Positions 5,123-31,938 of a DNA stretch of 64,000 nucleotides are shown piece by piece. The stretch's first letter is position 1, and every line of letters starts with the position of its first letter. A program made the translations under genes and the position numbers. Origin of the DNA: an uncultured Pseudomonadales bacterium (GTDB lineage Bacteria > Patescibacteriota > Microgenomatia > UBA1400 > CAYXSR01); the NCBI GenBank assembly GCA_964430265.1, contig CAYSEI010000002.1, positions 20,769 through 84,768 of the forward strand, given 5' to 3'. The notes under the pieces are model-generated. The model saw only the letters and a program-made list of their open reading frames with translations. It was not told where the DNA came from and made no database searches.

Positions 5123-5926
5123 ATGTTTAGATTTTTTAAAAAATACCAAGCTACTTTTAATACCCAAATCAAAAATACCTTTGTTTACAGAGGAATGCTA
5201 ATAATTTGGATGATTGGTTGGTTATTATCTTTTTTAACTTCTGTCTTTCTCTGGAATTCTGCCCAAACAAAAGGAAGTTTAGCCGGTTTTACTAAGGACC
5301 AAATTATAAGTTATTATTTTATTGGTATGTTTGTCTGGCAGGTAGTTGGATGGTTTCCGTTTTATACAATAATAGAGAAAATAAGAAACGGAGAAATATC
5401 TAATATGGTTATAAAACCAATCAATTTTTATTGGTATATGTTTGTTCAAGAGCTTGCTTGGCACGTAGTTAATACTTTTATTTTTTCTTTATTGTTGTTT
5501 TTTATCTTTTTTTTAGTTAGAGCTAATCTTTTTTTGCAGTTTCAATTATCTAGTGTTTTCCTCTTTATCTTAGCTTTAGCAATTGCTGCTTTTATTGTTT
5601 TTGGGATGTCTATGATTTTAAGCACACTGGCTTTTTGGTTAATTCGTGCACAAGGAGTGGCTTCTTTATTTTGGATTCTTTTGTCCCTTTTAGGAGGGCA
5701 AATGCTTCCATTACGTTTTTTTCCCAGCCAATATCAGACTTTTATCAATATTACTCCTTTTAGGTTCATGTATTCTTTCCCTATTGAAATTCTCTTGGAA
5801 GATATGGGTAAAAATGAACTAATTTATTCTTTTTCCTTGGGAATTTTTTGGGTAATATTTTTTTACTGGCTTTTTCATTTATTATGGCAAAGAGGATTAA
5901 AAAATTTTACTGCCTGGGGAAGTTAA
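5123..5926 (+). CDS. ABC-2 family transporter permease (ABC2_membrane_6-like).
   Basis: Six TM segments. The N-terminus FKKY...NTFVYRG and overall architecture resemble ABC-2 permeases. No ATPase is adjacent. Confidence 0.55.
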   Translation: MFRFFKKYQATFNTQIKNTFVYRGMLIIWMIGWLLSFLTSVFLWNSAQTKGSLAGFTKDQIISYYFIGMFVWQVVGWFPFYTIIEKIRNGEISNMVIKPINFYWYMFVQELAWHVVNTFIFSLLLFFIFFLVRANLFLQFQLSSVFLFILALAIAAFIVFGMSMILSTLAFWLIRAQGVASLFWILLSLLGGQMLPLRFFPSQYQTFINITPFRFMYSFPIEILLEDMGKNELIYSFSLGIFWVIFFYWLFHLLWQRGLKNFTAWGS

Positions 5927-6721
5927 ATGAGGATCAAAAGGTATTTAAAACTGTTTTTGGAGTTTTTTAGATTTAGTTTTAAGGCTGATATTGAATTTCG
6001 CGGTAATCTGATATTTTATACAATTGAAAATATTTTGTGGCTGATTTTAGCAGTTGTAGGTATAAACTTAATATTCGGACAGATACATTCAATTGCAGGT
6101 TGGACAAAAAATGAAGTTTTTTTAGTGTTATTTATTGGTGCATTGTTTAGTGATTTATCTTGGACTTTAATATTTCGAAATTTAAACAAGTTTTCTCAGC
6201 TAATAAGAGAAGGAACTTTAGACTATTATCTTTTGAAACCTACTAACTTGCGTTTTTTACTATCTTTTCGAATCATAGAATTTGATCACTGGATAAGAAT
6301 TGTTCTGGAATTATTTTTAATTTATAAATACACACTTTTAACTAGCGGGTATTTATCATTTTTAAACATATTGTTATTTATTTTTGTTTTTATCTGCGGT
6401 TTTATTATTTTTTATTCAATATTTTTTGCAGCAACAATAACTAATATCTGGTTTGTTAAACTGGAAAACTTGGTTCATTTGTTTCAAAATATAAAAAATA
6501 TGGGTGATCGCCCGGTATATATTTATAAAAAAGGTTTTTTATTCTTTTTTTCCTTTATTCTGCCAATTGGATATATTGCCACCTTTCCTGCTCAGGCTTT
6601 GATGGGGGAAATAAGTACAATAAAATTAATTGCTGGTCCTATTTTGGCAATATTTCTTTATTGGCTATCGCATAGATTTTTCAAATTCGCCTTAAAATAT
6701 TATTCGTCAGCTTCAAGCTAA
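5927..6721 (+). CDS. ABC-2 family transporter permease, partner of the 5123 ORF.
   Basis: The IREGTLDYYLLKP motif is a hallmark of the ABC-2 permease family. The protein is polytopic. Confidence 0.6.
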   Translation: MRIKRYLKLFLEFFRFSFKADIEFRGNLIFYTIENILWLILAVVGINLIFGQIHSIAGWTKNEVFLVLFIGALFSDLSWTLIFRNLNKFSQLIREGTLDYYLLKPTNLRFLLSFRIIEFDHWIRIVLELFLIYKYTLLTSGYLSFLNILLFIFVFICGFIIFYSIFFAATITNIWFVKLENLVHLFQNIKNMGDRPVYIYKKGFLFFFSFILPIGYIATFPAQALMGEISTIKLIAGPILAIFLYWLSHRFFKFALKYYSSASS

Positions 6722-6744: not shown

Positions 6745-6772
6745 TTGACAAAAAATAGTAAAAGAGTATAAT
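6745..6772 (+). promoter_or_regulatory. Near-consensus sigma70 promoter TTGACA-16-TATAAT upstream of the DUF134 operon.
   Basis: Both hexamers are perfect in the sequence. The promoter lies about 45 nt upstream of the 6818 start. Confidence 0.45.
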
Positions 6773-6817
6773 AAGTTATGAACCATAGTTCAAAAGTTAA
6801 TTGATTAAATTAAAAAC

Positions 6818-7327
6818 ATGGTAAGACCAAAAAAACCAAGAACAATATCGCAAAAACCAAAAAACAGGTATTTCAAGCCTCGCTCTGTCCCATTGAATAA
6901 ACTGGAGCAAATAGAGCTTAAATTTGAAGAGCTGGAAGCGATTAAACTAGCTGATTTGAAAGATATGACGCATCAACAAGCATCGAAATTAATGAATATT
7001 TCTCGGCCAACGTTTACAAGGGTATTACAGTCAGCACGTTATAAAGTTGCCAAGGCGCTTAATAATGGCCAGGCAATTGAAATTAAAGGAGGTGAATATA
7101 AAATGAGTCCAAGAGGAAGAGGGTTTGGTCCAGGAAAAAGACAAGGTAGAGGTAGAGCAGCTGGTGGAAGAGGAAGAGGTAGGATGGGAGGACCTTTTGC
7201 AGCCGGTCCAGGGGGAAAATGTGTTTGCACAAATCCGGACTGTAAAAATGAAATAGAACATTTAGTAGGACAGCCCTGTTATCAAAAAAAATGTCCTAAG
7301 TGTGGAAGTCCAATGGTAAGAGAATAA
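6818..7327 (+). CDS. DUF134/UPF0251 predicted DNA-binding protein with a C-terminal Arg/Gly-rich (RGG) tract and a four-Cys zinc-ribbon extension.
   Basis: FKPRSVP...LKFEELEAIKLADL...ISRPTFTRVLQSARYKVAKALNNGQAIEIKGG matches DUF134 end to end. The tail GRGRAAGGRGRGR...CVCTNPDCKN...CPKCGSP is an add-on. Confidence 0.8.
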   Translation: MVRPKKPRTISQKPKNRYFKPRSVPLNKLEQIELKFEELEAIKLADLKDMTHQQASKLMNISRPTFTRVLQSARYKVAKALNNGQAIEIKGGEYKMSPRGRGFGPGKRQGRGRAAGGRGRGRMGGPFAAGPGGKCVCTNPDCKNEIEHLVGQPCYQKKCPKCGSPMVRE

Positions 7328-7365: not shown

Positions 7366-7752
7366 ATGACAAAAATTGCAATTGCAGCAACTGGGAATAG
7401 TAAACAAGATCAAGTAGATTCTCATTTTGGCAGGTGTCCGTATTTTTTCTTTGTCGACACTGAAAATGAAGAATATCATGCAGTTGAAAACCAGGCACAA
7501 AAAGCTTATGGAGGTGCGGGAATTTCAGCAGCTCAATTGATTGTTGATTCAAAAGCTGAAGCAGTGATAACAAAAAATATTGGGCCCAAAGCAGTTAGTG
7601 TTTTAAGTCAAACAGATGTAGATATATATCTGGCAGAGAAAGAACAAAATATTGAGCAAGCACTTAATGCCTTTAAAAAAGGTAAACTGGAAAAAATAAT
7701 AAAAGCAAATGTAGACATGGGAAGAGGCGGAAGAAGTAGAAAAAGTATTTAA
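7366..7752 (+). CDS. NifX/NifB-like dinitrogenase FeMo-cofactor-binding domain protein (Nitro_FeMo-Co family).
   Basis: HFGRCPYFFFVD, a central GGAG and the C-terminal VITKNIGPKA are typical of this domain. Confidence 0.8.
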   Translation: MTKIAIAATGNSKQDQVDSHFGRCPYFFFVDTENEEYHAVENQAQKAYGGAGISAAQLIVDSKAEAVITKNIGPKAVSVLSQTDVDIYLAEKEQNIEQALNAFKKGKLEKIIKANVDMGRGGRSRKSI

Positions 7753-7818: not shown

Positions 7819-9072
7819 ATGAATAATATAATGCAACTCAAAAAAGGTGAAAAGGTAGCACGCTCAGCCTTGATTTTAGAATCAATCTTGGCTGCAAGCA
7901 AAGCTATTGTCGGATACTTAAGTGGTAGTTTGGTTTTAATATCGGATGCAGTTCACAGTGCATCTGATCTTTTGCCTATTTTTGCCAGCTATTTGGGATT
8001 AAAAATTGCACAAAAAGATCCGGATGAGAAGTTTGCTTACGGATATTATAAAGCGGAAAATATTGCTTCTGCTATGGTTTCTGTATTAGTCCTTTTTGCC
8101 GGATATAAAGTTATTAGTTCTGGAATAAATAACCTGGATAAAATATCCTCCCCTAATATTCCTTTTATTGCTATGGCGGTGTCATTAGTAGATGCAGTTG
8201 TGCTTTTCTTTTTTGGTAAGTATGAAATTAAAGTGGCGGAGGAAATTAATTCAAACAGTTTAAAAACCATGGGTAAAGAAAACCGTACTCATATTTTTAC
8301 TTCTTCTACTGTGCTTGTGGGTATTTTAGCCAGCTACTTGGGAATTCCTTATTTAGAAGGAATATTTACAATCGGAATTTCCTTTTTAATATTTGAAATT
8401 GGGTTGACTTCAGGAAAGGATGCAATATTGGCTTTAATGGATGTTGTTCCGCAAAAAGAAATTGAAGAAAAAATTGCAAAAGCAATTGCTTCAGTTCCAG
8501 GAATTGAGGAATATTATGATTTAAAATTAAGACGTTCAGGACCATATATTTTAGGTGAAACTAAGGTAGGGGTAAGAAAATCGATTGATGTTAAAAAATC
8601 TCACGAAATCTCTGAAAAAGTGGAAGAAGCTGTTAAAAAAGAAGTTCAAGTAGTAGATTCTTTTACAGTTCATGTTGAACCGTTCAAAAGTGAGTATCAA
8701 CACCTTGTTTTACCAGTTAAGAGCAAAAAGGGTTTGCAAGCAGAAATTGCTCCCCAATTCGGCAGAGCTGCGTATTTCCTTTTTGTTAATTTGAAAAAGA
8801 ATGAAGTTAAAGGACATTTTACAACTGAAAATAAATATAAAAATAAAAAGGTTAGAGCTGGATTGGAAGCTGCAAAAATGATTGTACAAAAGAAGAGTAC
8901 TGCAGTTATAACTAGTGAGATGGGTGAAATTACTTTTCATTTTCTTAGGGATAATCTTTTTGATATTTTTAAAACAAGTGATAATAAAGCAGAAGGTGCA
9001 ATTGGAAAATTTAAAAAAGGACAATTAGAAATGTTGAAGCAGCCTACTAAGAAAGCAGAAGGAAATGAATAG
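7819..9072 (+). CDS. Cation diffusion facilitator (CDF) transporter fused to a C-terminal NifX-like (Nitro_FeMo-Co) domain.
   Basis: A CDF transmembrane domain (HSASDLL, six TM) and a CDF C-terminal domain are followed by QFGRAAYFLFVN...AVITSEMGE, which resembles the 7366 ORF. Confidence 0.8.
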   Translation: MNNIMQLKKGEKVARSALILESILAASKAIVGYLSGSLVLISDAVHSASDLLPIFASYLGLKIAQKDPDEKFAYGYYKAENIASAMVSVLVLFAGYKVISSGINNLDKISSPNIPFIAMAVSLVDAVVLFFFGKYEIKVAEEINSNSLKTMGKENRTHIFTSSTVLVGILASYLGIPYLEGIFTIGISFLIFEIGLTSGKDAILALMDVVPQKEIEEKIAKAIASVPGIEEYYDLKLRRSGPYILGETKVGVRKSIDVKKSHEISEKVEEAVKKEVQVVDSFTVHVEPFKSEYQHLVLPVKSKKGLQAEIAPQFGRAAYFLFVNLKKNEVKGHFTTENKYKNKKVRAGLEAAKMIVQKKSTAVITSEMGEITFHFLRDNLFDIFKTSDNKAEGAIGKFKKGQLEMLKQPTKKAEGNE

Positions 9073-9895
9073 AAAAAAAACTAAGAAAATTGCAATTACC
9101 GGAGGAAAAGGGGGAACAGGAAAATCAACTTTTTCTGTTTTATTAGCCAACAAATTATTATCAAAAGGTAAAAAAGTTGTTTTAATAGACGCAGATATTG
9201 AATGCCCCAATGATTACTTGTTATTAGGGGTTAAACTAAAAAATTCAGTAAAAGATATTAAAGCTCAATTTCCGCAATTGAACAAAGAGCCTTGTACTAA
9301 ATGTGGTAAATGTGTTTCCCAATGTCGATCCAATGCAATATTTCAAGCTCCGGGGAAGTATCCGATTTTTATCAGGGAATTATGTTCGGGTTGTGGTTTG
9401 TGCTGGCATATTTGTCCGGAAAATGTAATTGAAGTAGAAAAGGTTGTAATCGGAAAAACTTATGTTAATAAAATAAATTCTGATTTTACTCTTGTAACCG
9501 GAAGGTCAGTAGGAGTAGTGGATGAAACCGGACCGATTGTTACCAGTGTTAGGGAATACGTAGAAAAAAATTTAGATGCAGACATTATTTTAATAGATAC
9601 TTCGGTTGGATTGCACTGCGGTGTGATTCGTGCCTTAATTAATACTGATCTTGTTTATGCTGTTACTGAACCTACTCCTTTAGGAAAGCATGATTTACAG
9701 CTTATTCTTGAGCTGATTAATAAACTTGACCTTAAAAAGAAAGTGGTTGTAAATCAGGCTGATTTAGGGGATCAAACTCTTATTGACCCATTGATAAAAA
9801 AATATCAAACAGAAATCAGTTATAAAATTCCTTACTCAAAAAAATTAGTTGGTATGTATTCTCAAGGAAAATTAGGAGATTTAAACTTTTTATGA
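9065..9895 (+). CDS. MinD/ParA-superfamily P-loop ATPase with an inserted 4Fe-4S ferredoxin domain (COG1149-like).
   Basis: Walker A GGKGGTGKST. Two CxxCxxCxxxCP clusters (CTKCGKCVSQC, CSGCGLCWHICP). The start overlaps the upstream gene by 8 nt. Confidence 0.8.
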   Translation: MNRKKTKKIAITGGKGGTGKSTFSVLLANKLLSKGKKVVLIDADIECPNDYLLLGVKLKNSVKDIKAQFPQLNKEPCTKCGKCVSQCRSNAIFQAPGKYPIFIRELCSGCGLCWHICPENVIEVEKVVIGKTYVNKINSDFTLVTGRSVGVVDETGPIVTSVREYVEKNLDADIILIDTSVGLHCGVIRALINTDLVYAVTEPTPLGKHDLQLILELINKLDLKKKVVVNQADLGDQTLIDPLIKKYQTEISYKIPYSKKLVGMYSQGKLGDLNFL

Positions 9896-10770
9896 CAAAA
9901 AAAATAGCAGTTGCCTCTGGAAAAGGAGGAGTTGGTAAATCAATGCTAGCTTCTTCTTTGGCTTTATTACTTAGTAAGAGCAATAAAATAGTTGCTGTTG
10001 ATTGTGATGTTGATGCTCCCAATCTACATCTTTGGCTTGGGCAAAAAGAAGATTGGCAGGAAACAAAAAAAATTTCCACAAATGAAATTCCTGTAATTGA
10101 TAAAGAAAAATGTGCTTTATGCGGAAAATGTGTCTCAATTTGTGCTTTTGATAGTTTATCAATTGAAAACAAAGCTGTTAAACTGAATAAATTCTTTTGT
10201 GAGGGTTGTGGGGCTTGTGAAGCTGTGTGTCCGCAAAATGCAATTAAAATGAAAAAAATTCAAAACGCAGAAATCAGAATAAAACATGATGTTTTTGGTT
10301 TTCCTTTGGTGTCAGCCCAACTCTATCCAGGAGAAACAGGGTCAGGAAAAGTTGTTGAAGAAATAAAAGAGAAAGCAAAAAATTTTGAAAAAGAAATAAT
10401 GCTTATTGATTCTCCTGCAGGGACGGGATGCCCGGTTATAGCAGCTTTAAACGGGATAGATTTTGCAGTTTTAATAACTGAGCCAACGCCGTCAGGTCTT
10501 TCTGATCTCAGACGGGTATTACAAGTAGTCGATCATTTTAATATTCCTTTTAGAGTAGTAATCAATAAATGGGATATAAACAAACAAGTGACCAAAAAGA
10601 TTGAAAATGAATTTCAAGAAAAAATAATTGGTAAAATTTCTTATAACAAAAAATTCTTTCAAGCAATAGCCGAATTAAAACCAATAATGAAAACTAAGCT
10701 TCAGACAAAAAAGGAAATTAAATCAATATATAAAAATTTGGAGGCCTCGACCGGAATCGCACCGGTGTAA
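9892..10770 (+). CDS. Second MinD-like P-loop ATPase with a ferredoxin insert, paralog of the 9065 ORF.
   Basis: SGKGGVGKS Walker A. CALCGKCVSIC and CEGCGACEAVCP clusters. It overlaps the previous gene by 4 nt (ATGA). Confidence 0.8.
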   Translation: MTKKIAVASGKGGVGKSMLASSLALLLSKSNKIVAVDCDVDAPNLHLWLGQKEDWQETKKISTNEIPVIDKEKCALCGKCVSICAFDSLSIENKAVKLNKFFCEGCGACEAVCPQNAIKMKKIQNAEIRIKHDVFGFPLVSAQLYPGETGSGKVVEEIKEKAKNFEKEIMLIDSPAGTGCPVIAALNGIDFAVLITEPTPSGLSDLRRVLQVVDHFNIPFRVVINKWDINKQVTKKIENEFQEKIIGKISYNKKFFQAIAELKPIMKTKLQTKKEIKSIYKNLEASTGIAPV

Positions 10771-10813
10771 CTGGTTTTGCAGACCAGTGCATAAACTTCT
10801 CTGCCACGAGGCC
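10739..10813 (-). tRNA. tRNA-Cys (anticodon GCA), with U73 discriminator and an encoded CCA. The D-loop and T-loop are atypical.
   Basis: A GC-rich island sits in AT-rich DNA. On the minus strand there is a perfect 7-bp acceptor stem (GGCCTCG/CGAGGCC) and U8. The D-stem is GCAG/ATGC. The anticodon stem CTGGT/ACCAG carries loop CUGCAAA (U33, GCA, A37). The variable region is 4 nt. The T-stem is ACCGG/CCGGT with loop TGCGATT, followed by TCCA. G at position 55 and a single G in the D-loop are unusual. Coordinates are +/-2. Confidence 0.55.
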
Positions 10814-13805: not shown

Positions 13806-14215
13806 TAGAAAACAGTTAGGCTAAAAATCATAAAAACATCAATAACGATTAATAGCACTATTAAGAAATTAGTCCAAATAGTAATTTGTGATAATATTTT
13901 ATTTCTTTTAAAAAAGATTGATGCTAGTCTTAGATTAATAATTACCATGATTAAGGAAGCTATAATTACTATAAGAAAAGTCTGTTTACTTACTAATTGT
14001 TCTTCTCCCCAAGGGCGATTATAAAAAAGAGGCATTTCTGGCGGCATTTGGTTATAAAAAATTAAGGTTGCTAAAAAAGTAGCTAAGATAAAGATAAGAG
14101 AAAAAATAATTGCCAGCCGAGAATTCTTCTGTGCAAACAGAGTATTAAATTCTTGCTTAGCTTTTTCCAAGGAATTGGATTGGAAAAATTTTAGTTGTTG
14201 GATGTTTTCAGCCAT
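13805..14215 (-). CDS. Small polytopic membrane protein (3 TM) of unknown function, inside the glycan operon.
   Basis: Hydrophobic profile only. It is tightly packed between the GT-C and MraY-like genes. Confidence 0.4.
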   Translation of the reverse strand: MAENIQQLKFFQSNSLEKAKQEFNTLFAQKNSRLAIIFSLIFILATFLATLIFYNQMPPEMPLFYNRPWGEEQLVSKQTFLIVIIASLIMVIINLRLASIFFKRNKILSQITIWTNFLIVLLIVIDVFMIFSLTVF

Positions 14216-15666
14216 GGTTTTCTTTTATAAATTGTGAAATTATCAAATTCTTTGATTTGAGAATATCCAGTAAGCAGCAGTTTATCCAGTTGTTCAAACT
14301 CTCTGTGTTCTTCCGTATCAGTAATAATAAGTTTGGGCGGATTATTATTTAAATCCTGGGTAGTCTCTTTGATCCCGTTAAAATCAGTGATATGAAAGTC
14401 TGTGACATATTTACCTGGAGGCAAACGGTCGGTCAATGCATATATACAGGAAGAACTATTGCTCCAGACAAAGATGTTTTCTTTTGGATTTGTAATTGAA
14501 CGAATATATCTGGCCATTTGGTATTCTAAATGAGTTTTATTTTCAAAATAATCAAAATACTGTTGGCGATTTTTTTTGCCGACTGCAAAAGAATAAAAGT
14601 TTTTGTAATAAGGAGCAACAGGATACCACCAAAACTCATACTTAAAAACTCCCCAAGACATTAATCCTATAAAAAACAAGCCTCCAGTTATTTGTACAAG
14701 TTTGTGATTAAATAAAATCTGTGTAATTAATAAAGCAATCCAAGGTGTCACTTGGATTAAATAGTGGGGATAAGGGCGTTCAGAAAGAAAAACGCCAAAT
14801 CCGCCCATTAAAGCCATCAAAAGAATCAAATAAAATTTAAAGCCAAGTTTTTTTCTAAAGATGTAAACAGCAATTAAAGAAGCAAGTAAAATAAGTGCCC
14901 GATAATATAGTTCGCTACCACTACTAGTATCTCCGCTCCAAGAAGAGATGTAACCAATATTTTGTAAAAGAGCAGAACGAATATAAGGTTCTGCAGCTCC
15001 ATGAAACCAATAGTATATTATTGATACTAAAATGGGAGTAAAAAAACCGATTAAAAGAAGATATATTTTTTTATTTTTGAAAATGGAAAGAAATTCTTTA
15101 ATACTTTTTTTTCTATAAAGAAAAAATGCTAAGCAAAGACCGGCAAATTCAAGTGCGATTGGTGGTTTATACAAAAACGCAATACTGAAGCTTAAGCCAA
15201 CCCAAGCCCAAAGATTAGGCTTTTGCAATTTTTCTGCTTTTAAAGCCAGGTAAAGTCCCAAAGTAGCAGGCATAATCATAAACAATTCGCCATTGGAAAC
15301 CCAACCCTCAGGAAGAAATGAAAAAACAGCAAAAAGAAAAGCTGCAATCAAACCTGCTGTCTTTCTTTGCTTTTTAACTAACATTTCTCCAACCTTGTAT
15401 ACCAAATAAACGTTAATCAAATTCCAAATGAGGCCAAATGCTCGGAAATAAGTAATTTTTCCTTGAGCTAGAGCTGTAGTTAAGAATATCAATGGTGGTT
15501 TATGGTCAAATATACGTTTATAAAAAACAAAACCTTTATTAAATGCCTGACCTAGGGTAATATAAATACATTCGTCTCCGTAATATAGCGGTTCAAACAA
15601 AGAAGGAATTCTTATTAAGAAAGTAAATAAAATAATCAGAAGCAAAATAAGTTTATACTTTTTCAT
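14191..15666 (-). CDS. GT-C fold glycosyltransferase (ArnT/PMT_2-like polyprenyl-phosphate-sugar dependent transferase).
   Basis: The N-terminal FLIRIPSLFEPLYYGDECIYITLGQAF loop with a DE motif, more than 10 TM segments and a C-terminal soluble domain. Confidence 0.65.
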   Translation of the reverse strand: MKKYKLILLLIILFTFLIRIPSLFEPLYYGDECIYITLGQAFNKGFVFYKRIFDHKPPLIFLTTALAQGKITYFRAFGLIWNLINVYLVYKVGEMLVKKQRKTAGLIAAFLFAVFSFLPEGWVSNGELFMIMPATLGLYLALKAEKLQKPNLWAWVGLSFSIAFLYKPPIALEFAGLCLAFFLYRKKSIKEFLSIFKNKKIYLLLIGFFTPILVSIIYYWFHGAAEPYIRSALLQNIGYISSWSGDTSSGSELYYRALILLASLIAVYIFRKKLGFKFYLILLMALMGGFGVFLSERPYPHYLIQVTPWIALLITQILFNHKLVQITGGLFFIGLMSWGVFKYEFWWYPVAPYYKNFYSFAVGKKNRQQYFDYFENKTHLEYQMARYIRSITNPKENIFVWSNSSSCIYALTDRLPPGKYVTDFHITDFNGIKETTQDLNNNPPKLIITDTEEHREFEQLDKLLLTGYSQIKEFDNFTIYKRKPWLKTSNN

Positions 15667-15673
15667 AAATTCA

Positions 15674-17161
15674 TTATACTTTTTCTGTTACTCGGTATTC
15701 AATATATTTGCCTAGCATTAATCTAGTATGGGCATCCAAGCCTGGCAAAGCTGAGAAAAAGAAACCAGCAACCGGTAATAATATTAATTCTATTGGTGTA
15801 ACAATCCAACGCCATAAAGGAATTTCTTTTTTCTTTGGACGCTGTTTTAAATCAACAAATACAATAAAAAGCATGGAAAGTAATGAAAAAGTTAAGATTG
15901 TGGAAGACACTTGGGGTAAAGTTTTTCCTAACACAGTTTGATTAAACTCTTGGTTTAAAAGGGGAGGAAGTGAAGCACCAATAGTAATTGCAAACCAATA
16001 TACGGGCCACAAAAAATGGTCCTCAATAACTCGGAGAACTTTGACTGTTTTTTTCCAAAAAGGTAAGTTTGGTACAGTTAGCCAATTTTTGATGATGTAT
16101 GCGTCATCTGCAGTTCCCCAAGCCCAGCGCTTAACTTGTTCATATTGATTAACTAAAGTTTTCCATAAAGTAGTTGATTGGGCGGCATCTTCATAAACTG
16201 GAAGGTAGATAGGATGGACTTCAAGTTCACCTTCAAGCTTAAAAAAGCTTTTAAAAAAGAGGCGGTAGTCTTCCGGTATAACATCTGTGTCCCAGTAGCC
16301 GATTTTATCAATCATTTTTAAAGAAGATGAATAGGTTGAGAAATTAATTAACCTATCTTTTCGGTAAAGCAGACCTAATTGGAATACACTAGAGTTTGCA
16401 TTAAAAACACGGGTTAAAATTGGAACTTCCCAGATATTATTATAAAAAAGAATTGCAGGCTGAAAAATCCGTCGGTATCTGTCAGGATCATCTAAAAATT
16501 TAAAGGTTAAACAAGAAAAGTAGTCTTTATGAAGAATTGCATCTGCATCTTCACTGGTTATTGTTATATAGTCTATGTTCCATCCATCTTCGTCCACTAT
16601 TTTTTTCTTAGCGATTTTTGCTGCCCAAGAAGTATTTGAAGACTTACCTTTTACCTCTCCGGGTAAATCAGGGTGAAAAGTAGTAATAAAATAGCCAAAT
16701 TTATCTTTAAATTCCTTTTTCAATTGTTCTGCTTTTTCAAAAGCATCTTTTCCCTCCCTTTTTTCAAAGGCCAAAACAACAGCAATGCGCTTATTGGGAA
16801 AACTTTGTTTAGTCAACTTACTTAAAGTTCTACGAAGAATATAGTCAGGTTCTTTATAAGTAGGTATGATAGTTATATGTAAGACTTTTTCCCAACCCGG
16901 AAAACTTTTGATTTCTCCTAACCAATCAAAATTTTGATATGCTTTAAGTTTAAAGTGTGCAAGTAAAGCACATAAAGCAATTGATATTGATCGATAAAAC
17001 CAGTAAACATCAAAAGCCAAAATATAATAAGCAACTGCAGTAGGAATAACAAAAGATCCCCAAAAGGGAAACAAGATTAATGACCAGGATACAAAACCCG
17101 GCAAGATTTCCAAAAATCTATTAACTCTTTTTTCGTTGTTTTCTACAAACTTTTTAATCAT
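15674..17161 (-). CDS. Processive family-2 glycosyltransferase (cellulose/chitin synthase-like) with flanking TM segments.
   Basis: DxD (DADAILHKD) and the QxxRW motif (QYEQVKRWAWG). TM helices at both the N- and C-terminus. Confidence 0.75.
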   Translation of the reverse strand: MIKKFVENNEKRVNRFLEILPGFVSWSLILFPFWGSFVIPTAVAYYILAFDVYWFYRSISIALCALLAHFKLKAYQNFDWLGEIKSFPGWEKVLHITIIPTYKEPDYILRRTLSKLTKQSFPNKRIAVVLAFEKREGKDAFEKAEQLKKEFKDKFGYFITTFHPDLPGEVKGKSSNTSWAAKIAKKKIVDEDGWNIDYITITSEDADAILHKDYFSCLTFKFLDDPDRYRRIFQPAILFYNNIWEVPILTRVFNANSSVFQLGLLYRKDRLINFSTYSSSLKMIDKIGYWDTDVIPEDYRLFFKSFFKLEGELEVHPIYLPVYEDAAQSTTLWKTLVNQYEQVKRWAWGTADDAYIIKNWLTVPNLPFWKKTVKVLRVIEDHFLWPVYWFAITIGASLPPLLNQEFNQTVLGKTLPQVSSTILTFSLLSMLFIVFVDLKQRPKKKEIPLWRWIVTPIELILLPVAGFFFSALPGLDAHTRLMLGKYIEYRVTEKV

Positions 17162-24193: not shown

Positions 24194-25129
24194 ATGGCGA
24201 AAAACAAAAGAAAAATAGATTTTATTGGAATTGGTGCGCCGCGCAGTGGTTCTACATGGCTGGCTCAATGCTTATATGAACATCCAGAGATTGAATTTCC
24301 CGGCAAAAATACTGCAAAAAAACTGCATCCTTTTGATAAGGAAATAAATTTTTTTTGTGAAACTCTTTTAAGAAGCAGTTATTCACAGAAAAATCGTTAT
24401 TCAAAAGGAATTGATTGGTATCTTAATTTATTTGATTGGAAAAATACTGAAAGAATAAGGGGAGAGTTTAGTGTAGGGTACTTTGCTGATAAAAAAGCTC
24501 CTAAAAGAATAAAAAAGCATTTTCCTAAAATTAAACTAATAGCTATTTTGAGAAATCCCGTTGAAATGGTGTATTCAATTTATCATCATCTTTGTGCTTT
24601 AGTACACACAGAAATGCCTAAGAATTTTGAAACAGCTCTAGAGCAAGAAAAATATAAAAAATTACGTCTGCATTGGGGATTGTATTACAAACAACTTTCA
24701 TATTATTTAAAGTTTTTTGACCAAGATCAGTTTTGTATTGTTTTATTGGATGACGTGAAAAAAAGTCCTAAAAAAGTTGTGCAGCAAGTATATTCATTTT
24801 TAAACGTTGAATCTGATTTTCAACCTTCGGTTTTAACGCAAAAAGAAAATCAAGCTGTGAGGCCTAATTCAAAAATCTTACAAAGAGTTGGTTATAAAAT
24901 GCTAAAAGCTACAGAGAAGCTAGGGTTTAAAAGTGTTCACAACGAATTAAGCAGAAATAGGTTTCTTAAATACATTTACAACAGATATAATCTTAAAAAA
25001 CACAAATATCCTCATTTAAAATTTCAAACAAGAAAAAAACTTTTTAAATACTATAAAAAAGATATTGAAAAACTTGAAGTATTATTAGATCGTTCGTTAA
25101 ACGATTGGCTAAAATATAAAACAAATTAG
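24194..25129 (+). CDS. PAPS-dependent sulfotransferase family protein.
   Basis: 5'-PSB motif GAPRSGSTWL. 3'-PB-like LRNPVEMVYSIYHH. Confidence 0.8.
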   Translation: MAKNKRKIDFIGIGAPRSGSTWLAQCLYEHPEIEFPGKNTAKKLHPFDKEINFFCETLLRSSYSQKNRYSKGIDWYLNLFDWKNTERIRGEFSVGYFADKKAPKRIKKHFPKIKLIAILRNPVEMVYSIYHHLCALVHTEMPKNFETALEQEKYKKLRLHWGLYYKQLSYYLKFFDQDQFCIVLLDDVKKSPKKVVQQVYSFLNVESDFQPSVLTQKENQAVRPNSKILQRVGYKMLKATEKLGFKSVHNELSRNRFLKYIYNRYNLKKHKYPHLKFQTRKKLFKYYKKDIEKLEVLLDRSLNDWLKYKTN

Positions 25130-25139
25130 AAAGGGAAAT

Positions 25140-26333
25140 TTGTTTGCAGAAATAATAATATTTATAAGCGTCTTTTTTATTTATTATATTTTAGGCAATA
25201 ATATTAATACAGGCCACGATTTTTTTGTTCCTCTTGCAGAGGCTTTTTTAAAAGGACGGCTTTATGTTAATAAAATGGCTTATGAGTTACACGAAATGGT
25301 CTCACTGGAGGAAGTAAAAACAGGGATATATAAACAGGTTGCTGACGGAAGCAAAGGAATTTTTTATGTTATTTATCCGCCAATGCCGGCAATTTTATTG
25401 ATGCCTCTTGTTTTAATTTGGGGTCAAGATTTTAACCAAAGCCTTTTTTCCATGCTTATTTGTTCTTTGAGTTCAGTTTTTGCTTTTAGACTTTTTAAAT
25501 CACTCAATTTAAGCATAAAAAAAAGCTTTTGGCTCTTAGCTCTTTTAGTCTTTGGATCAATGCAGTGGTATCACGGAACAATAGGATCCTCTTGGTATCT
25601 TTCTTTGGCATGCGCAATGCTTTTTTTATGGATAGCAATTAGTCTGACCCTAAAAAATAAATCACTTATTTTAATTGGTTTATTTTTAGGATTTGCATAT
25701 TTATCTAGGTTTTCCGTTATATTAAGCTTTCCTTTTTTCTTGATTAACACTCAAAAATTTTGGTTTAAGAAAAAAGGATTTAAAATTAAGCCATTACTTA
25801 TGTTTTTTTCGGGAATATTTTTATGTTTAGCTATTTCTTTTTTATACAATTATTTGCGTTATGGAACAATCTGGCATATTGGATATCACTTACTTGAAAA
25901 ACGTTGGTACAATATTGCAAATGAATATGCAGACGGTTCATATAGTCTGAGTTATTGGCCTCGTCACATCAAAGCTTTATTCTGGAGTTTTCCGCATAAA
26001 ATTAATGGATTTCCCTTTTTTGAACCCAATTATCATTCAATGGCAATTTGGATAGTTATGCCGGCTGTGATTTTGGCATTTTGGGCTCCCTTTAAGAAAA
26101 AGATTGTTTGGAGTAGCTGGTTAGTAATTATTTTAATTGCCTTATCACATTTTTTTCACGGCGGAGTTGGTGCAACTCAATTTGGATATCGATATGCAAT
26201 GGATTACTTTCCATTTTTATTCATTCTTTTTGTGCAGGCAATAAAAAAGAAATTTTACTGGTGGCAAAAAGTATTGATTATATTGAGTATTATTATTAAT
26301 TTGTGGGGCGTATATTTTAGTTTCTGGAGATGA
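25140..26333 (+). CDS. Polytopic membrane protein, probable GT-C-like glycosyltransferase or accessory protein.
   Basis: About 10 TM segments. It sits in the GT-C array. No diagnostic motif was recognised. Confidence 0.4.
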   Translation: MFAEIIIFISVFFIYYILGNNINTGHDFFVPLAEAFLKGRLYVNKMAYELHEMVSLEEVKTGIYKQVADGSKGIFYVIYPPMPAILLMPLVLIWGQDFNQSLFSMLICSLSSVFAFRLFKSLNLSIKKSFWLLALLVFGSMQWYHGTIGSSWYLSLACAMLFLWIAISLTLKNKSLILIGLFLGFAYLSRFSVILSFPFFLINTQKFWFKKKGFKIKPLLMFFSGIFLCLAISFLYNYLRYGTIWHIGYHLLEKRWYNIANEYADGSYSLSYWPRHIKALFWSFPHKINGFPFFEPNYHSMAIWIVMPAVILAFWAPFKKKIVWSSWLVIILIALSHFFHGGVGATQFGYRYAMDYFPFLFILFVQAIKKKFYWWQKVLIILSIIINLWGVYFSFWR

Positions 26334-27835
26334 AAATAAACTACAAATATTTAACTTTTGAAGTGCTAATTCTAATTTTAATTCTTGGATTACCTTTGTT
26401 GCTAATGTATCAGAGTATAGGCAAAAAAGGACCAACAATTGATGAACAAAATACATATATTCCAATAGTAGAAAATTTAATTCAAGGAAATAAATATTAA
26501 AATATATCCAAGAGCTATTTTCATCCACCATTGTCTTTTTATATTTCCTCTTTGACCTCTAAAATTTTTAAAACAAAAACATCTAGAATTACAATGTTGT
26601 CTGTTTTTATAACATTAGGAGTATTTTTTTTCTATGTTTCTAAGGCTAGCTTTAATAAGCTAACGGCTTTTTTATTATTGTTAATATATGCTTGGTTTCC
26701 GGAAATTTTAGCTCATTCTCGCTTAATAACGCCTGATATGACATTAGCATGTACGACTTTTATTTATCTTTATTTCTTATATTTGCTTTTGCAAAAGCAA
26801 AACTGGAAAAGAACTTTGTTTACGGGGCTAAGTTTAGGACTGGCTTTTATAAGTAAATATACAGCTTTAATGTTGATCCCTATCTCTTTATTATTACTTT
26901 TTGTAAATTTAATAAAACCCAAAAACAATATAAAAATGAAAATTTTTAGTTTGTTTGTAGTAATAATAACTGCTTTGTTTGTTATTAATTTCAGTTATAA
27001 TTTTCAGCAAAGTTTTTCTTTACCTGAATTTGAAAGTAGAACTTTTCAAAGATTAGAATCAAATCTTATAACTAATAAATTATTAAAAACAACACCATCT
27101 TTATATTTAAAAGGCTTAGATTTTCAACTTTATCAGTCAAGTTTGGATAATAGAAGAAATTTTTTTATGCAGCAAAGATCGTCCAAAGGAATTCCTCAAT
27201 ATTTTATTGGAACTTTTTTATTTAAAACTCCTTTACCGCTGTTAATTTTATTCTCAGCTAATATTTTATTTATAATTTTTATAAGTAAGGAAAAAAACTC
27301 TTTGCATTTTTTAATTCCGGTTTTGTTCTTTTTTGTTTACTTTAGTTTTTTTAATAATTTAAATATTGGTTTTCGTTACTTACTGATGATTTATCCATTA
27401 CTTATTTTTAGTTTAGGGGAATTTTTTGATTACATTTGCAAACAAAAAAAACAAATTTTTAAAATTATTCTTTTTTTATTGATAGCTTGGAATATATTAG
27501 AAACAATCAAAATACACCCTCATTATTTAGCTTATGCTAATCAATTAGCAGGAGGACCTCAAAATGGATATAAAATTTGGGCAGATTCTTCATTAGACTG
27601 GTTTCAAGACAATGATGCTTTTGGTAGATATTTAGACAAGAAACAGATTGATATCCCAATTGATCCACAACATCCTATTTTAGGAAAATTTGCTGTAAGT
27701 GTTTTTTCAATGAATAAAGAGAATTATTACGAATATCAGTGGTTAAGAGATTTAGAAAAAAAGCCTGTTGATCAATATGGATATACATGGTTAATTTTTG
27801 ATATAACAAAAGAAGATTTAGGGAAAATAGATTAA
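26330..27835 (+). pseudogene. GT-C (ArnT/PMT_2-like) glycosyltransferase gene interrupted by a single in-frame TAA at 26498-26500. It is either a pseudogene, a sequencing error or a recoding site.
   Basis: A 56-aa upstream ORF (MKINYKYLTFEVLILILILGLPLLLMYQSIGKKGPTIDEQNTYIPIVENLIQGNKY) lies in the same frame as the 26531 ORF. Reading through the TAA gives ...GNKY*NISKSYFHPPLSFY..., which restores the canonical TM1, DE-loop and HPPL N-terminus of GT-C enzymes. The ATG at 26330 overlaps the upstream TGA stop (ATGA). Confidence 0.55.
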
Positions 27836-27849
27836 ATAAATACTAATAA

Positions 27850-29502
27850 ATGAATAAGAAAATAAGAATACTGATACTTTTAATTTTTTTTACTTTAGGT
27901 TTAGTTTTAAGATTGTATAAATTAGGGTTAATACCGCCCGGTACTAATTGGGATGAAACAGTCGTTGGTTATACCGGTTATTCAATTCTAAAAACTGGGA
28001 AAGATGAATGGGGGAAAAAAATACCTATTTTTACTAAAGGTTTTGGTGATTATCGTTCCGCGGTATATTCTTATCTAACGACTGTTCCTATTAAGATATT
28101 TGGATTAACGCCTTTTGCTATACGGTTTCCTGCAGCTGTTTTAGGTTCAACCGGAATAATTGCCTTTTATTTTTTAATAAAAAATTTATTTGAATTTTAT
28201 AACTTAAAGGGGAAATCAAAGAATATCGCTGTTATTGGTGCGTTTTTATTTACAATTAATCCTTGGAACTTCTTTTTTAGCCGTTATGGCTTTGATGTGA
28301 GTAGTTGTTTTATATTTGGATTGTTCTCACTGACGTTTGTTTTTTTATTTTTAAACAAAAAAAAATATCTGCATTTATTTTTTTCAATTATTTTTGCTTG
28401 TTTAAGCATATATAGCTATCATAATGCAAGAATTGTGATTCCTTTTGTTTTTTTATTTTTATTTGTACAGAATTTTTCTATATTTATTAAAAATAGAAAG
28501 CAAATAGCATTAGTTTTTTTAACGGGTATTCTTTTATTTTTGCCTTTTTTGATATATGTAAAAACAGGCTTTCTATCAATAAGAACAAAAGAGCTTTCAA
28601 TATTTTCTAATTATTGGAAAAAACATGAATTAGAAAAATTACTAGTAAAAAGCACATTTTTAAGAAGTTTTGCTTTTTTTTATAAATATTTTTTTTACTT
28701 TCAGGAAATATTTAAAAATATCTTAAGAAATCTTTCTTTAAAATTTCTTTTCTTAGGAGAGGATTTACATTATCGTTTTGGAATTAAATACTACGGAAGG
28801 TTTTTATATCCTAGTTTAATTTTTTTGTTTTTAGGACTTTTCAAAATATGGACCAGGAATAAAAAATTGTTTGCTTTTTTAACATCTTTTATTTTAGTAT
28901 CTACGTTGCCAGCGGCATTAACAGTAGACAGCCCTCATCCTTTAAGAGTATATTTTCTTTTAATTCCTTTATTAATAATCATAACTTTTGGTATTTATTA
29001 TTCATTTAAAGGAAAAGCTATTAAATTTAAGCGCAGATTCTTAACAGGTGCTTTTATAGTCTATATGTTGTTTTTATCTTTATATATAAATGCTTACTTT
29101 AATTTTTTTAATGAGGAAGCGGATCAAAATTGGCAGTATTTTTATAGAGAATTAGTAGAATCTATAGATAATCAGTATAAAGATTATAATAGGATTTTAT
29201 TTGATATTCATTGGGGACAACCACATATATTTATGTTTTTTTATCAAAAAATAGATCCTTTAATTGTACAAAAAGAAATGAACAGAAAGGATCAGCTTAG
29301 CGAATCTCGTGGGGTTGTTAGCAGATTTCAAAATATTCATTTCAAAGATGTCCATGAGAGTGATATATTAAATTGTCATAATTGTTTAATAATTGAAGAT
29401 GAAAAGAGAACAAAGTTAGAGAAAAATAAAGTTGTAAAGGAATTAGAAAACATAAAACTGAATAACGGAAATACTATTTTTTGGATATATAAAACGATAT
29501 GA
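27850..29502 (+). CDS. GT-C fold glycosyltransferase, family 39/83-like (ArnT/PMT_2).
   Basis: The first loop NWDETVVGYTGYSILKTGKDEWGKKIPIF, a polytopic N-terminal half and a C-terminal soluble region. Confidence 0.7.
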   Translation: MNKKIRILILLIFFTLGLVLRLYKLGLIPPGTNWDETVVGYTGYSILKTGKDEWGKKIPIFTKGFGDYRSAVYSYLTTVPIKIFGLTPFAIRFPAAVLGSTGIIAFYFLIKNLFEFYNLKGKSKNIAVIGAFLFTINPWNFFFSRYGFDVSSCFIFGLFSLTFVFLFLNKKKYLHLFFSIIFACLSIYSYHNARIVIPFVFLFLFVQNFSIFIKNRKQIALVFLTGILLFLPFLIYVKTGFLSIRTKELSIFSNYWKKHELEKLLVKSTFLRSFAFFYKYFFYFQEIFKNILRNLSLKFLFLGEDLHYRFGIKYYGRFLYPSLIFLFLGLFKIWTRNKKLFAFLTSFILVSTLPAALTVDSPHPLRVYFLLIPLLIIITFGIYYSFKGKAIKFKRRFLTGAFIVYMLFLSLYINAYFNFFNEEADQNWQYFYRELVESIDNQYKDYNRILFDIHWGQPHIFMFFYQKIDPLIVQKEMNRKDQLSESRGVVSRFQNIHFKDVHESDILNCHNCLIIEDEKRTKLEKNKVVKELENIKLNNGNTIFWIYKTI

Positions 29503-30743
29503 AAATTTGGATAAAAACTCTAGTTGTATTTGGAATTTGTTTGCTAAGTTTATTATTGCGTTTTAAAGTCTTTCCATACAAAACTCATTGGTCGGACATG
29601 TTTTTTTGGAAGGACTGGGGAAGAGGAATACTTGAATATGGTACTAAAGGTTTTTATAAACAATTCGGCTCAGATTATCTACCATTTTATCCGCTTGTTT
29701 TGGGTGTAGTTAAAACAATTTATAATTATACACACGAACTTCTTAATATAAAAGATATTTATTACTACAAATTTCCCGCGGCAATTTCCGATATTTTTTT
29801 TGGTTATTTAATTTTTAGATTTTTAAAGGAAGTAAAGAATTATAAAGCCGGAATTTTAGGAATGATTTTATTTCTTTTTAATCCCGCTGTATTTGCAAAC
29901 TCAAGTATGTGGGGGCAAGTGGATGTGATAGGTACTTTATTTTTATTTGCCGGTTTTTATCTTTTATATAAGAAGAAATATTGGGTATCCGGATTGTTTT
30001 TGGGGTTATCTTTAGTTACTAAAGCCTTGTATTTAATAGCTATCCCGTATTTATTTTTACTATTTTTTAGAAAAGAGGATTTTTACATAAATATACATAG
30101 GAAAATTCTTAAAAAATGTTTCTTAGTTTTTCTGGGAATATTAGTTTCAATAATAGTTATTACTTTGCCTTTTGTAGAAGGTGGTCTTTTTGCAGTTTTT
30201 AAGTTTTTGTTTGAACGCTATAAGATTATTAGTGAAAGATATCCTTATACTTCAGTAAATGCATTTAATTTTTGGGGATTGGTGGAAAAAGAATTCTGGC
30301 TTTCTGATAAAAGAGGACCTTCCTTTTTGACTTATAACAAATGGGGAACACTAATTACTCTTTTATTGATTGCAGCTGTTTATATAAAAGGTTTTTTAAA
30401 TGCAATAAGAAAAAAATGGTTTTATTCTTTAGTTTTGGGGATATCTTTATTATTTTATTCCAGTTTTTTATTTTTGACCCGGATGCATGAACGGCACTTT
30501 TTTTATGTTATTCCCTTTTTAGCAGTTGCTGCGGTTATTAAGCACAGATTAATAATTGCTTATTTAATTACTAGTTTAACTTACTTATTAAGTTTGCACT
30601 TTGCTCTGGAATATTATTATCAGGCCAAAGCATATGTTTTTTCGTCTTTGCAGATCAATTTAATCAGCGGAGCCAATGTACTAGTGTTTTTTTGGTTATT
30701 GTTTGAGTTTTTACTTTTGACAAAAAATGAAAAAAAAATATAA
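29499..30743 (+). CDS. GT-C-like polytopic membrane protein, paralog A of a three-member tandem family.
   Basis: Shares YKFPAAISDIFFG, YPYTSVNAFNFW and LFLTRMHERHFFY motifs with the next two ORFs. Confidence 0.6.
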   Translation: MKIWIKTLVVFGICLLSLLLRFKVFPYKTHWSDMFFWKDWGRGILEYGTKGFYKQFGSDYLPFYPLVLGVVKTIYNYTHELLNIKDIYYYKFPAAISDIFFGYLIFRFLKEVKNYKAGILGMILFLFNPAVFANSSMWGQVDVIGTLFLFAGFYLLYKKKYWVSGLFLGLSLVTKALYLIAIPYLFLLFFRKEDFYINIHRKILKKCFLVFLGILVSIIVITLPFVEGGLFAVFKFLFERYKIISERYPYTSVNAFNFWGLVEKEFWLSDKRGPSFLTYNKWGTLITLLLIAAVYIKGFLNAIRKKWFYSLVLGISLLFYSSFLFLTRMHERHFFYVIPFLAVAAVIKHRLIIAYLITSLTYLLSLHFALEYYYQAKAYVFSSLQINLISGANVLVFFWLLFEFLLLTKNEKKI

Positions 30744-31938
30744 AAAACTTCTTATTTATTTAATAGTTGGATCAGTTATTTTAGTTATCCGCTATATTCT
30801 CAGTTTAAGAAAATATAATCTAGACATCTTAAATCATGCAGTTTGGACAGAAAAAGCCTTAGCTGATGGATTAAAAGGGTATTATAAAAGAATATATTCT
30901 CCCTATGCAGAAGCAAACTATCCGCCTTTTGCAAACCTGCTTTTTTATTTGTCACATAAAACTTATAGGATGCTAGGTTATTCCGGAGGTTTGAATAATC
31001 TTTTGGCTGCTTTTTATAAAATTCCTTTGATAATTGCTGATTTAATAATTGTTTTTTTATTGTTTAATATTTTTAAAAATAAAAAGAAAAAATTTAAAAA
31101 ATATTTTTATCCTTTCTTTTTTTTAATTAATATTGCTTTAGTTTATAACAGTGTTTACTGGGGGCAGTTGGAAAGTGTGATAACCCTGTTTTGTATGCTT
31201 TCCTTATATTTTCTTTTTAAAGAACCCAATTTATTAGCCTATGTTTTTTTTGCTTTGGCAGTTCTGACAAAACAGACAGCACTGGTTTTAACGCCGCTGT
31301 TTTTTTTACTCAGCTTAAAAAAACTTAATATAAAAAAAACAATTGTAGGAATGGGAATAATATATTTGATCATTTTTATCTTTTTTATTCCTTTTACAGG
31401 CAAAATTGATTTTTTTTATCCAGTGAGATTTTATTTGCAAACTTCAGGCGGACAACTTCACCAGAATCAAGCGACCGTAAATGCTTTTAATTTCTGGTTT
31501 TTATTAGGACAAAACAAAATTTCAGACAGCACCACCCTTTGGAAGTTGATTGATTATCGTCTGGTTTCAATTCTGATATGTTTATTATTTTTCTTGCCGA
31601 TATTAATAAAAGTATATAATAAAAAGCCTAAAATAATTTCAGTTTTTAAAGCTGCAGGACTTTTATTTTACATAGTCTTTCTTTTTTTAACCCGGATGCA
31701 TGAAAGGCATCTTTATCCTGCATTAGCGTTTTTAATTCCCGGTTTAAATTCAATTATTAGTCTATTATTGTATGTTATAATTTCATTTATACATTTTTTT
31801 AATATGGATTTTGTTTGGCAGGAAATGATGGCAGATCCTATACCTTCAACAATTTTTAAAGGTAAAATAATGGCAGGGATTCTTTTAGCAATGTTCGTTT
31901 ATTTTTATACAAATTTTTTGATAAGAAAAGAAAAATGA
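30727..31938 (+). CDS. GT-C-like polytopic membrane protein, paralog B.
   Basis: FYKIPLIIADL, QATVNAFNFW and LFLTRMHERHLYPAL motifs. Confidence 0.6.
   Translation: MKKKYKKLLIYLIVGSVILVIRYILSLRKYNLDILNHAVWTEKALADGLKGYYKRIYSPYAEANYPPFANLLFYLSHKTYRMLGYSGGLNNLLAAFYKIPLIIADLIIVFLLFNIFKNKKKKFKKYFYPFFFLINIALVYNSVYWGQLESVITLFCMLSLYFLFKEPNLLAYVFFALAVLTKQTALVLTPLFFLLSLKKLNIKKTIVGMGIIYLIIFIFFIPFTGKIDFFYPVRFYLQTSGGQLHQNQATVNAFNFWFLLGQNKISDSTTLWKLIDYRLVSILICLLFFLPILIKVYNKKPKIISVFKAAGLLFYIVFLFLTRMHERHLYPALAFLIPGLNSIISLLLYVIISFIHFFNMDFVWQEMMADPIPSTIFKGKIMAGILLAMFVYFYTNFLIRKEK

Follow-up and report, generated by a model that had tools for sequence, protein, structure and literature searches.

The 64,000-nucleotide stretch of contig CAYSEI010000002.1 analysed here (the window) contains, at 7819..9072, an open reading frame (ORF) for a cation diffusion facilitator (CDF) transporter that carries a Nitro_FeMo-Co domain at its C terminus. 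Sequence comparisons show that this three-domain fusion is genuine and ancient. It is kept in hundreds of tiny-genome anaerobes, and in the loci compared, from Candidate Phyla Radiation (CPR) bacteria and DPANN archaea, it is inherited together with Fe-S ATPases and with a soluble protein paralogous to the appended domain. Our preferred reading, to which we give a probability of about 0.45, is that the protein is a divalent-metal exporter, probably for Fe(II), with a C-terminal tail that would serve as an attached carrier or sensor of anionic metal sulfides and would feed or gate efflux.

How CDF transporters acquire their metal is unknown, and a metallochaperone has been speculated (review, PMC8341793). 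Metal acquisition is puzzling in a cytoplasm with almost no free metal, and the dedicated chaperone has stayed unidentified (PMC8341793). The fusion links a candidate carrier domain covalently to the transporter, with the gene of a soluble paralogue adjoining, and would make hand-off or gating testable. It would also bring a membrane component to the poorly understood ORP/MTH1175/MinD-ferredoxin clusters of anaerobes. The module is among few multi-gene modules common to CPR bacteria and DPANN archaea and may bear on the metal economy of ultra-small symbionts in sulfidic, iron-rich habitats.

The three-domain fusion and its spread

The fusion gene is preceded by a ribosome-binding-like AAGGG just 5' of the ORF. 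The gene and its domains are as follows:

7819..9072, + strand: CDF transporter fused to a Nitro_FeMo-Co domain; single ORF, ATG to stop, 417 aa
7867..8439, + strand, residues 17-207: transmembrane (TM) domain with six helices (Pfam; model); quartet H46 and D50 (TM2), E154 and H158 (TM5)
8449..8685, + strand, residues 211-289: CDF cytoplasmic C-terminal ZT_dimer domain (Pfam), alpha-beta-beta-alpha-beta in the model
8695..9018, + strand, residues 293-400: fused Nitro_FeMo-Co (IPR003731) domain of MTH1175/orange protein (ORP) type (Pfam; profile against the PDB)

A first-pass annotation of the window had described a TM domain, then a CDF C-terminal domain (CTD), then a PF02579 domain of about 120 aa. 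This order is exact and real, as judged from three Pfam domains and from homologues. In Pfam, Cation_efflux (PF01545) covers residues 17-207 (E 4.7e-39, 134.7 bits vs a cut-off of 26.6), ZT_dimer (PF16916) covers residues 211-289 (E 2.8e-17, 62.9 bits vs 26.7) and Nitro_FeMo-Co (PF02579) covers residues 308-399 (E 1.5e-9). The match of the C-terminal domain to PF02579, on which that description depended, lies above the gathering score (38.5 vs 26.3 bits). The NCBIfam model for the CDF superfamily, TIGR01297, scores 197.4 bits against a cut-off of 82.35.

An AlphaFold2 model of the fusion protein, built on 119 homologues, has a mean predicted local distance difference test score (pLDDT) of 88.5 and a predicted template modelling score (pTM) of 0.69. 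It contains six long helices (2-35, 38-64, 78-104, 115-143, 146-174 and 178-206), followed by the alpha-beta-beta-alpha-beta arrangement of the CTD (helix 213-224, strands 229-240 and 243-252, helix 258-275, strand 279-288) and by an appended C-terminal domain with a beta/alpha fold modelled at pLDDT 90-95. When the whole model was submitted to Foldseek, YiiP and ZnT transporters came out on top (E 7e-14), and the best 50 listed matches were CDF chains exclusively.

The closest solved relatives of the transporter part are the YiiP/FieF proteins of E. coli and Shewanella (8e-20 and 5e-13). With YiiP/FieF and the Fe/Zn/Mn CDF branch, including magnetosome MamB/MamM, the fusion shares the six-helix TM domain and the fold of the CTD. 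It also shares the four-residue TM2/TM5 transport site with YiiP/FieF and keeps the CTD metal site in part; its additional C-terminal domain of 125 aa sets it apart. Residues D45/D49/H153/D157 of the transport site in YiiP align with H46/D50/E154/H158 of the fusion. In the close family (120 aligned sequences, the query and 119 homologues), H46, D50 and E154 are invariant and H158 is found in 119 of 120. The quartet of distant fused relatives is mostly H(N/D)-D / E(D/H)-D, with D50, D158 and E/D154 persisting. The resulting quartets, HD-EH in the fusion and HD-ED in most distant relatives, contrast with DD-HD in YiiP and HD-HD in ZnT8. In the alignment of the CTD, H262, H285 and E287 match YiiP H261, H283 and D285, and Y and K occupy the positions of YiiP H232 and H248; the site B histidines and two site C histidines of YiiP are lacking in the fusion. 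These features identify the protein as a true CDF whose transport site is intact, transport itself being predicted.

The nearest equivalog models in NCBIfam are MamM (150.7 bits vs a cut-off of 350), MamB (141.1 vs 350), MntE (115.7 vs 500) and FieF (99.1 vs 420). All of these fall far short of their cut-offs, as does ZitB (34.7 vs 408), and the protein is a member of none of them.

The same three Pfam domains are present in 120 of 120 listed 90%-identity clusters (50-73% identity, ~414 aa). An exhaustive search of 50%-identity representatives returned 253 clusters at E<=1e-30, and Cation_efflux together with Nitro_FeMo-Co was found in 93 of the 103 long 50%-identity representatives scanned, down to 25% identity to the query. 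For comparison of loci we used one-genome-per-species contigs, which held 366 relatives; the best 80 of the 366, covering query residues ~6-414, were retained. The fusion is a complete ORF in 79 of these 80 loci, and the 80th locus has no complete ORF. The link between the CTD and the appended domain is short, the CTD ending at P288 and the nearly invariant P299 lying in the first strand of the next domain. The alignments have no indel at the domain junction (nt ~8680-8700), where residues are conserved. Because architecture and junction are conserved across independent assemblies, a chimeric join, a missed stop or a frameshift artefact is excluded.

Taxonomy of the fused relatives is given as labelled in database records; TPA_asm labels of metagenome-assembled genomes (MAGs), such as 'uncultured Gammaproteobacteria' and 'Saccharibacteria', look unreliable and were left unused. 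Close relatives with names are Microgenomates and Shapirobacteria, and the window therefore most likely derives from a CPR bacterium of the Microgenomates group. Fused relatives among CPR bacteria include Nealsonbacteria (one complete genome among these), Portnoybacteria, Paceibacterota and Parcubacteria, and those among DPANN and other archaea include Aenigmatarchaeota, Woesearchaeota, Micrarchaeota, Parvarchaeota, Iainarchaeum, Bathyarchaeota and Thermoplasmata. Certain fused MAGs bear an Actinomycetota label, and a distant fused clade has one Desulfobacteraceae MAG among its members.

The fusion is far from rare: public databases hold it hundreds of times, under the automatic name 'cation diffusion facilitator family transporter'. 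The literature searched (CDF plus NifX; PF02579/PF01545/IPR003731) yielded no paper that combines a CDF with this domain, in agreement with the first-pass annotation, which knew of no earlier description of the architecture. As far as that literature shows, it is already in databases, yet undescribed and uncharacterised.

The appended domain and the five-gene cluster

The appended domain had initially been called a NifX-like cofactor-binding domain. Membership of the superfamily stands, given the PF02579 match; a particular likeness to NifX, NafY or NifB does not, and nif genes are lacking (see below). A domain profile of 25 diverse members was compared with the PDB. It matched MTH1175 (1eo1, 1e-22), TM1290 (1o13, 1e-21) and TM1816 (1t3v, 1e-21; 1rdu, 6e-20), then the Desulfovibrio gigas ORP (2wfb, 4e-9), and also PH0822, MJ0327 and Ta1041. 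No NifX, NafY or NifB chain in the PDB was matched by the profile at E<=1, and no NifX or NafY model of NCBIfam was matched by the full fusion protein at E<=0.01. The term 'NifX-like' is therefore valid at the level of the superfamily (IPR003731) only.

The appended domain is nearly as conserved as the transporter and is therefore functional and under selection: mean pairwise identity in the close family is 55%, against 64% for the TM domain and 60% for the CTD, and among distant representatives the values are 27%, 33% and 29%. N324, N338, G348 and G369 are invariant in the close-family alignment. Where the family consensus reads HFGRA, the fused domain has QFGRA, and the His position varies in the close family. 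The domain is basic, with an isoelectric point of 9.8 (family median 9.9). It has no cysteine, and 82% of the close family are likewise Cys-free. Such a basic, Cys-free domain fits the non-covalent holding of an anionic ligand better than a Cys-ligated cluster, as far as composition can suggest.

Several relatives bind metal and sulfur. MTH1175 falls in the IssA-type clade, and the IPR003731 domain of IssA binds Fe and S (Vaccaro 2017, PMC5524996); that IssA holds anionic thioferrate electrostatically is a proposal of Vaccaro et al. (PMC5524996). In MrpORP an Fe-S cluster is bound by the IPR003731 domain; the cluster of ORP is of the Mo-Cu-S type and is held non-covalently (PMC6345978). The COG1433-type proteins MTH1175, TM1290 and TM1816 match both the fused domain and a free-standing paralogue encoded next to it at 1e-22 to 1e-18, and the fused domain shares with the MTH1175/IssA group its basic character and few or no cysteines. 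MTH1175-type proteins are soluble and single-domain, and IssA adds a Gly/Arg/Trp tail, whereas the fused domain sits on a transporter and ends in a short, Lys-rich tail (residues 401-417). In the sequence read to residue 417, an IssA-type long cationic Gly/Arg/Trp tail was not found after the fused domain. A further comparison, by description, is with FmpB (DMR_41100) of Desulfovibrio magneticus RS-1, an iron-handling protein associated with the membrane that has a domain of NifX/NifB type fused to it (PMC4287615). The FmpB system also relies on CDF transporters (MamB) (PMC4287615), but there the fusion partner is a magnetochrome/PDZ protein and not a CDF.

The operon context, which the first-pass annotation did not consider, carries most of the functional information. 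The fusion is gene 3 of five tightly packed same-strand genes, the other four being:

6818..7327, + strand: DUF134 (UPF0251) helix-turn-helix protein, 169 aa (Pfam DUF134 E 2e-27; weak HTH/Sigma70_r4 matches)
7366..7752, + strand: free-standing Nitro_FeMo-Co protein of MTH1175/orange-protein type, 128 aa (Pfam E 1.2e-23)
9065..9895, + strand: MinD/ParA-type P-loop ATPase with an inserted 2x[4Fe-4S] ferredoxin domain, 276 aa (Pfam CbiA/ParA and Fer4)
9892..10770, + strand: second MinD/ParA-type ATPase with a ferredoxin insert, 292 aa (Pfam)

The stop of the fusion ORF lies in an 8-nt overlap with the ATG (9065) of the first ATPase gene, and the start of the second ATPase overlaps the first by 4 nt. 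PDB matches of the first ATPase (9065..9895) are to MinD, FleN and polyferredoxin. The free paralogue matches MTH1175 (2e-18) and ORP 2wfb (6e-10) in the PDB; its identity with the fused domain is 34% (E 2e-15).

The association recurs. Counting genes within 4 kb of the fusion over the 79 loci, we found a free NifX-like gene in 62, a MinD/Fer4 gene in 61 (two or more in 37) and a DUF134 gene in 57. All three kinds were present in 46 loci and none in 6. At the very distant fused locus L087 the same partner set surrounds the fusion, together with radical S-adenosylmethionine (SAM) and metallo-beta-lactamase (MBL)-fold genes. Other recurrent neighbours, counted over ~75 related loci, include DUF5320 (24 loci), thioredoxin (17), a thioredoxin/glutaredoxin (Trx/Grx)-like multi-TM protein (25), and genes for ABC metal-type transport, ZIP, EncFtn/rubrerythrin-like, AhpD-like and P-type ATPase proteins. 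In the Desulfobacteraceae MAG, a MerR-family regulator lies directly upstream of the fusion.

The gene kinds of this cluster resemble those of the Desulfovibrio ORP complex, which is made up of Orp3, Orp4, Orp5, Orp8 and Orp9/MrpORP; ORP corresponds to Orp8, and the paralogues Orp3 and Orp4 both carry two [4Fe-4S] motifs (PMC6345978). The same kinds are found in the window (7366-7752, 9065-9895 and 9892-10770), the likeness being at the level of domain architecture. In MrpORP a P-loop Fe-S carrier has this domain fused to it as a module, and the domain binds Fe-S (PMC6345978). Unlike the window cluster, the ORP system has no CDF described. No MrpORP orthologue was found among the window proteins (35-50 bits vs a cut-off of 450, NCBIfam), and no sigma-54 activator was found by Pfam in the window cluster, which, unlike the ORP cluster, has a sigma-70-like promoter and a DUF134 gene instead.

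Several features of the related loci were observed alongside. The DUF5320 protein (e.g. L033 1702-2067, Pfam E 2e-25) is rich in Gly, Arg and Trp in its N-terminal half and ends in a coiled coil; its gene usually lies just 5' of the one for the free NifX-like protein. In composition the DUF5320 protein is reminiscent of the tail with which IssA binds thioferrate. In IssA these residues are part of the tail; here the Gly/Arg/Trp-rich DUF5320 proteins are separate genes in the 24 related loci and not in the window, where no separate DUF5320 gene is seen and the DUF134 protein bears a Gly/Arg-rich and Cys4 tail. A ~390-aa protein (L025 9934-11097, L001 10063-11250), with an N-terminal thioredoxin/glutaredoxin-like CPHC motif, a multi-helix membrane part, conserved cysteines and weak Pfam matches to Glutaredoxin and SfLAP, is encoded between both MinD/Fer4 genes in 25 loci; it is missing from the window, where both ATPase genes abut. 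At L087 the corresponding place (5422-6168) is taken by a 248-aa radical-SAM protein, and an MBL-fold protein follows the fusion; an MBL-fold gene recurs in 10 loci besides L087. In the window, a tRNA-Cys (GCA) gene at 10739-10813 on the - strand shares 32 nt with the 3' end of the second MinD/Fer4 ORF, and the true 3' end of the gene may precede the ORF end.

Proposed function and alternatives

The first-pass annotation had suggested metal export coupled to a cluster- or cofactor-binding module. This is still the most reasonable reading, with the function itself something we infer. Under our preferred form of it, the transporter would move a divalent transition metal, likeliest Fe(II), out of the cytoplasm against protons. 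Attached at the transporter's cytoplasmic opening, the appended domain would serve as a carrier or sensor and would hold an anionic metal-sulfide species, as its relatives do (the Mo-Cu-S cluster of ORP, the thioferrate of IssA). The metal-sulfide cargo that it receives or senses would be processed by the two Fe-S ATPases, with the soluble paralogue as the partner in exchange. The domain would then either pass the cation set free on to the transport site or turn efflux on at high cytosolic iron-sulfide load. On this view an ORP-like system for handling metal sulfides would have its membrane end in the fusion, which would also be a built-in form of the speculated CDF metallochaperone. Fe(II) is our guess for the preferred substrate because of the nearest CDF models (MamM, MamB, MntE and FieF) and the gene context, the metal itself not being readable from sequence.

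A bolder extension, speculative and on balance unlikely, is that the fusion, the paralogue, the Fe-S ATPases and often DUF5320 and thiol-redox partners form an unrecognised membrane-coupled iron-sulfide machine that passes metal directly between a store of protein-bound metal sulfide and the transport site. If this were true, the machine would be the first defined metallochaperone-to-CDF hand-off, common to CPR bacteria and DPANN archaea, and it might act as a valve for storage and release, or might even deliver metal to the external face of the membrane for the symbiotic lifestyle.

Several points weigh against the exporter with a metal-sulfide carrier or sensor. (i) The fusion protein falls outside every named CDF equivalog tested. 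The HD-EH quartet is an unusual variant that does not tell which metal is moved, and the A-site by itself does not set CDF metal selectivity (review, PMC8341793). (ii) The appended domain is Cys-free, which makes a classical Fe-S cluster unlikely, and the His of HFGRA is Gln here and variable in the close family, so the role of that residue is dispensable. (iii) The inter-domain geometry is only moderately supported by the model, whose pTM of 0.69 does not fix it. (iv) The fusion occurs without partner genes in 6 of the 79 loci and in L003, L086 and L088; because it is present without partners in certain genomes, the protein would be able to work alone. (v) The export direction of CDFs suits an overflow valve better than supply for cluster assembly, and the link to assembly-type ATPases is not self-evident. 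(vi) Which metal is moved, what the appended domain binds and which way any hand-off runs are inferred throughout.

Among the alternatives, the fusion might be a membrane anchor that tethers a soluble ORP-like complex for positioning or cell division, with metal transport secondary or lost. The ORP complex is described as 'putatively involved in cell division' and MrpORP is found at the poles (PMC6345978, PMC3897727). The partner ATPases are of the MinD/ParA type and tightly associated with the fusion, and the fused domain, being paralogous to one subunit of the complex, could dock by mimicry. Retention of the transport quartet, three of its residues invariant and H158 in 119/120 of the close family, with D50, D158 and E/D154 kept in distant members, is unexpected for an anchor, however. 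The CTD metal ligands H262, H285 and E287 are also retained, and some genomes have the fusion but lack the partners. We consider this explanation improbable.

The appended domain could instead do no more than extend the CTD as an allosteric sensor, responding to a simple ion or a non-metal ligand (for instance sulfide, a nucleotide or pH), with no cargo and no exchange with the paralogue. The link from P288 to P299 is very short, which suggests that the extension is rigid and regulatory, allosteric metal sensing is known for CDF CTDs (PMC8341793), and extra sensing capacity could compensate for Y and K at the YiiP H232/H248 positions; the lack of cysteine in the domain is also compatible with such a sensor. 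All characterised superfamily members cited here bind metal-sulfur species, however, and the adjacent paralogue and the Fe-S ATPases are conserved alongside the fusion. We consider the pure sensor improbable.

It is very unlikely that the domain binds a thiomolybdate- or thiotungstate-metal cluster while the transporter exports Cu, Zn or Cd for detoxification. ORP (2wfb) does match the fused domain (4e-9) and the free paralogue (6e-10), and it carries S2MoS2CuS2MoS2, of which analogues with Fe, Co, Ni or Cd are possible according to works cited in PMC6345978. But MTH1175, TM1290 and TM1816 are far closer than ORP, the nearest CDF models are of Fe/Mn type (MamM, MamB, MntE and FieF), and the recurrent neighbours include no Mo/W transport or molybdopterin genes, with thiol-redox and Fe/Zn-type transport genes found instead.

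A true NifX/NafY-like module that carries FeMo-co or NifB-co, on a transporter serving nitrogenase maturation, is effectively refuted. The Pfam family name and the above-threshold match speak for it, but no NifX, NafY or NifB chain or NifX/NafY model was matched (see above), the NifB model reaches 14.9 bits against a cut-off of 344 and with the free paralogue only, and nif genes are absent among ORFs of at least 150 aa in the annotated 0-35 kb of the window and among the recurrent neighbours of the ~75 loci. CPR/DPANN-type small-genome hosts are not known as nitrogen fixers. Finally, a mis-assembly or lost stop that joined a CDF gene to a NifX-like gene, conceivable in principle as read-through because separate NifX-like genes adjoin CDF genes here, is refuted: hundreds of assemblies, made independently in different studies and covering different phyla, show the same architecture and length (~414 aa), the junction residues are conserved, and the model is confident and continuous.

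Regulatory sequences and other features of the window

Upstream of the five-gene cluster, two sequence features precede the DUF134 gene:

6745..6772, + strand: promoter-like TTGACA-16 nt-TATAAT, 12/12 consensus matches (consensus match only)
6779..6792, + strand: palindrome TGAACCATAGTTCA, candidate operator, between the -10 hexamer and the DUF134 start codon

The DUF134 protein is the presumed regulator of the five-gene cluster, and the TGAA-N6-TTCA palindrome is a lead for its operator. In the related loci, TGAA-N6-TTCA occurs 8 times in the 14 kb upstream of DUF134 genes and 29 times in the other 904 kb, these being raw counts uncorrected for AT-rich intergenic composition. Upstream of DUF134 elsewhere the palindrome is mostly TGAATATATATTCA or TGAACATATGTTCA, often in tandem pairs (loci L014, L023, L026, L027, L028, L057, L064, L065, L071, L075, L082 and L083). 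The tail of the DUF134 protein is Gly/Arg-rich, Cys-rich and zinc-ribbon-like, with weak Zn-ribbon matches. We also considered this tail as a DUF5320 domain; it gave no match to DUF5320, and weak zinc-ribbon matches instead.

Immediately 5' of the five-gene cluster lie two adjacent ABC-2 (ABC2_membrane_6) permease genes (5123-6721), and Pfam identified no ATPase gene beside them at 4.6-6.8 kb. The window has a G+C content of 31-33% and contains housekeeping genes and many glycosyltransferases. PMT_2/PMT/GT87-type membrane glycosyltransferases are encoded at 14191-15666 and 26531-34406, one of 823 aa with PMT and PMT_4TMC domains. Among the glycosyltransferase genes are a sulfotransferase (24194-25129) and ORFs of ~400-500 aa that have no Pfam match (15674-17161, 25140-26333 and 29499-30743). 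At 26-32 kb of the window the G+C content falls to 26-28%.

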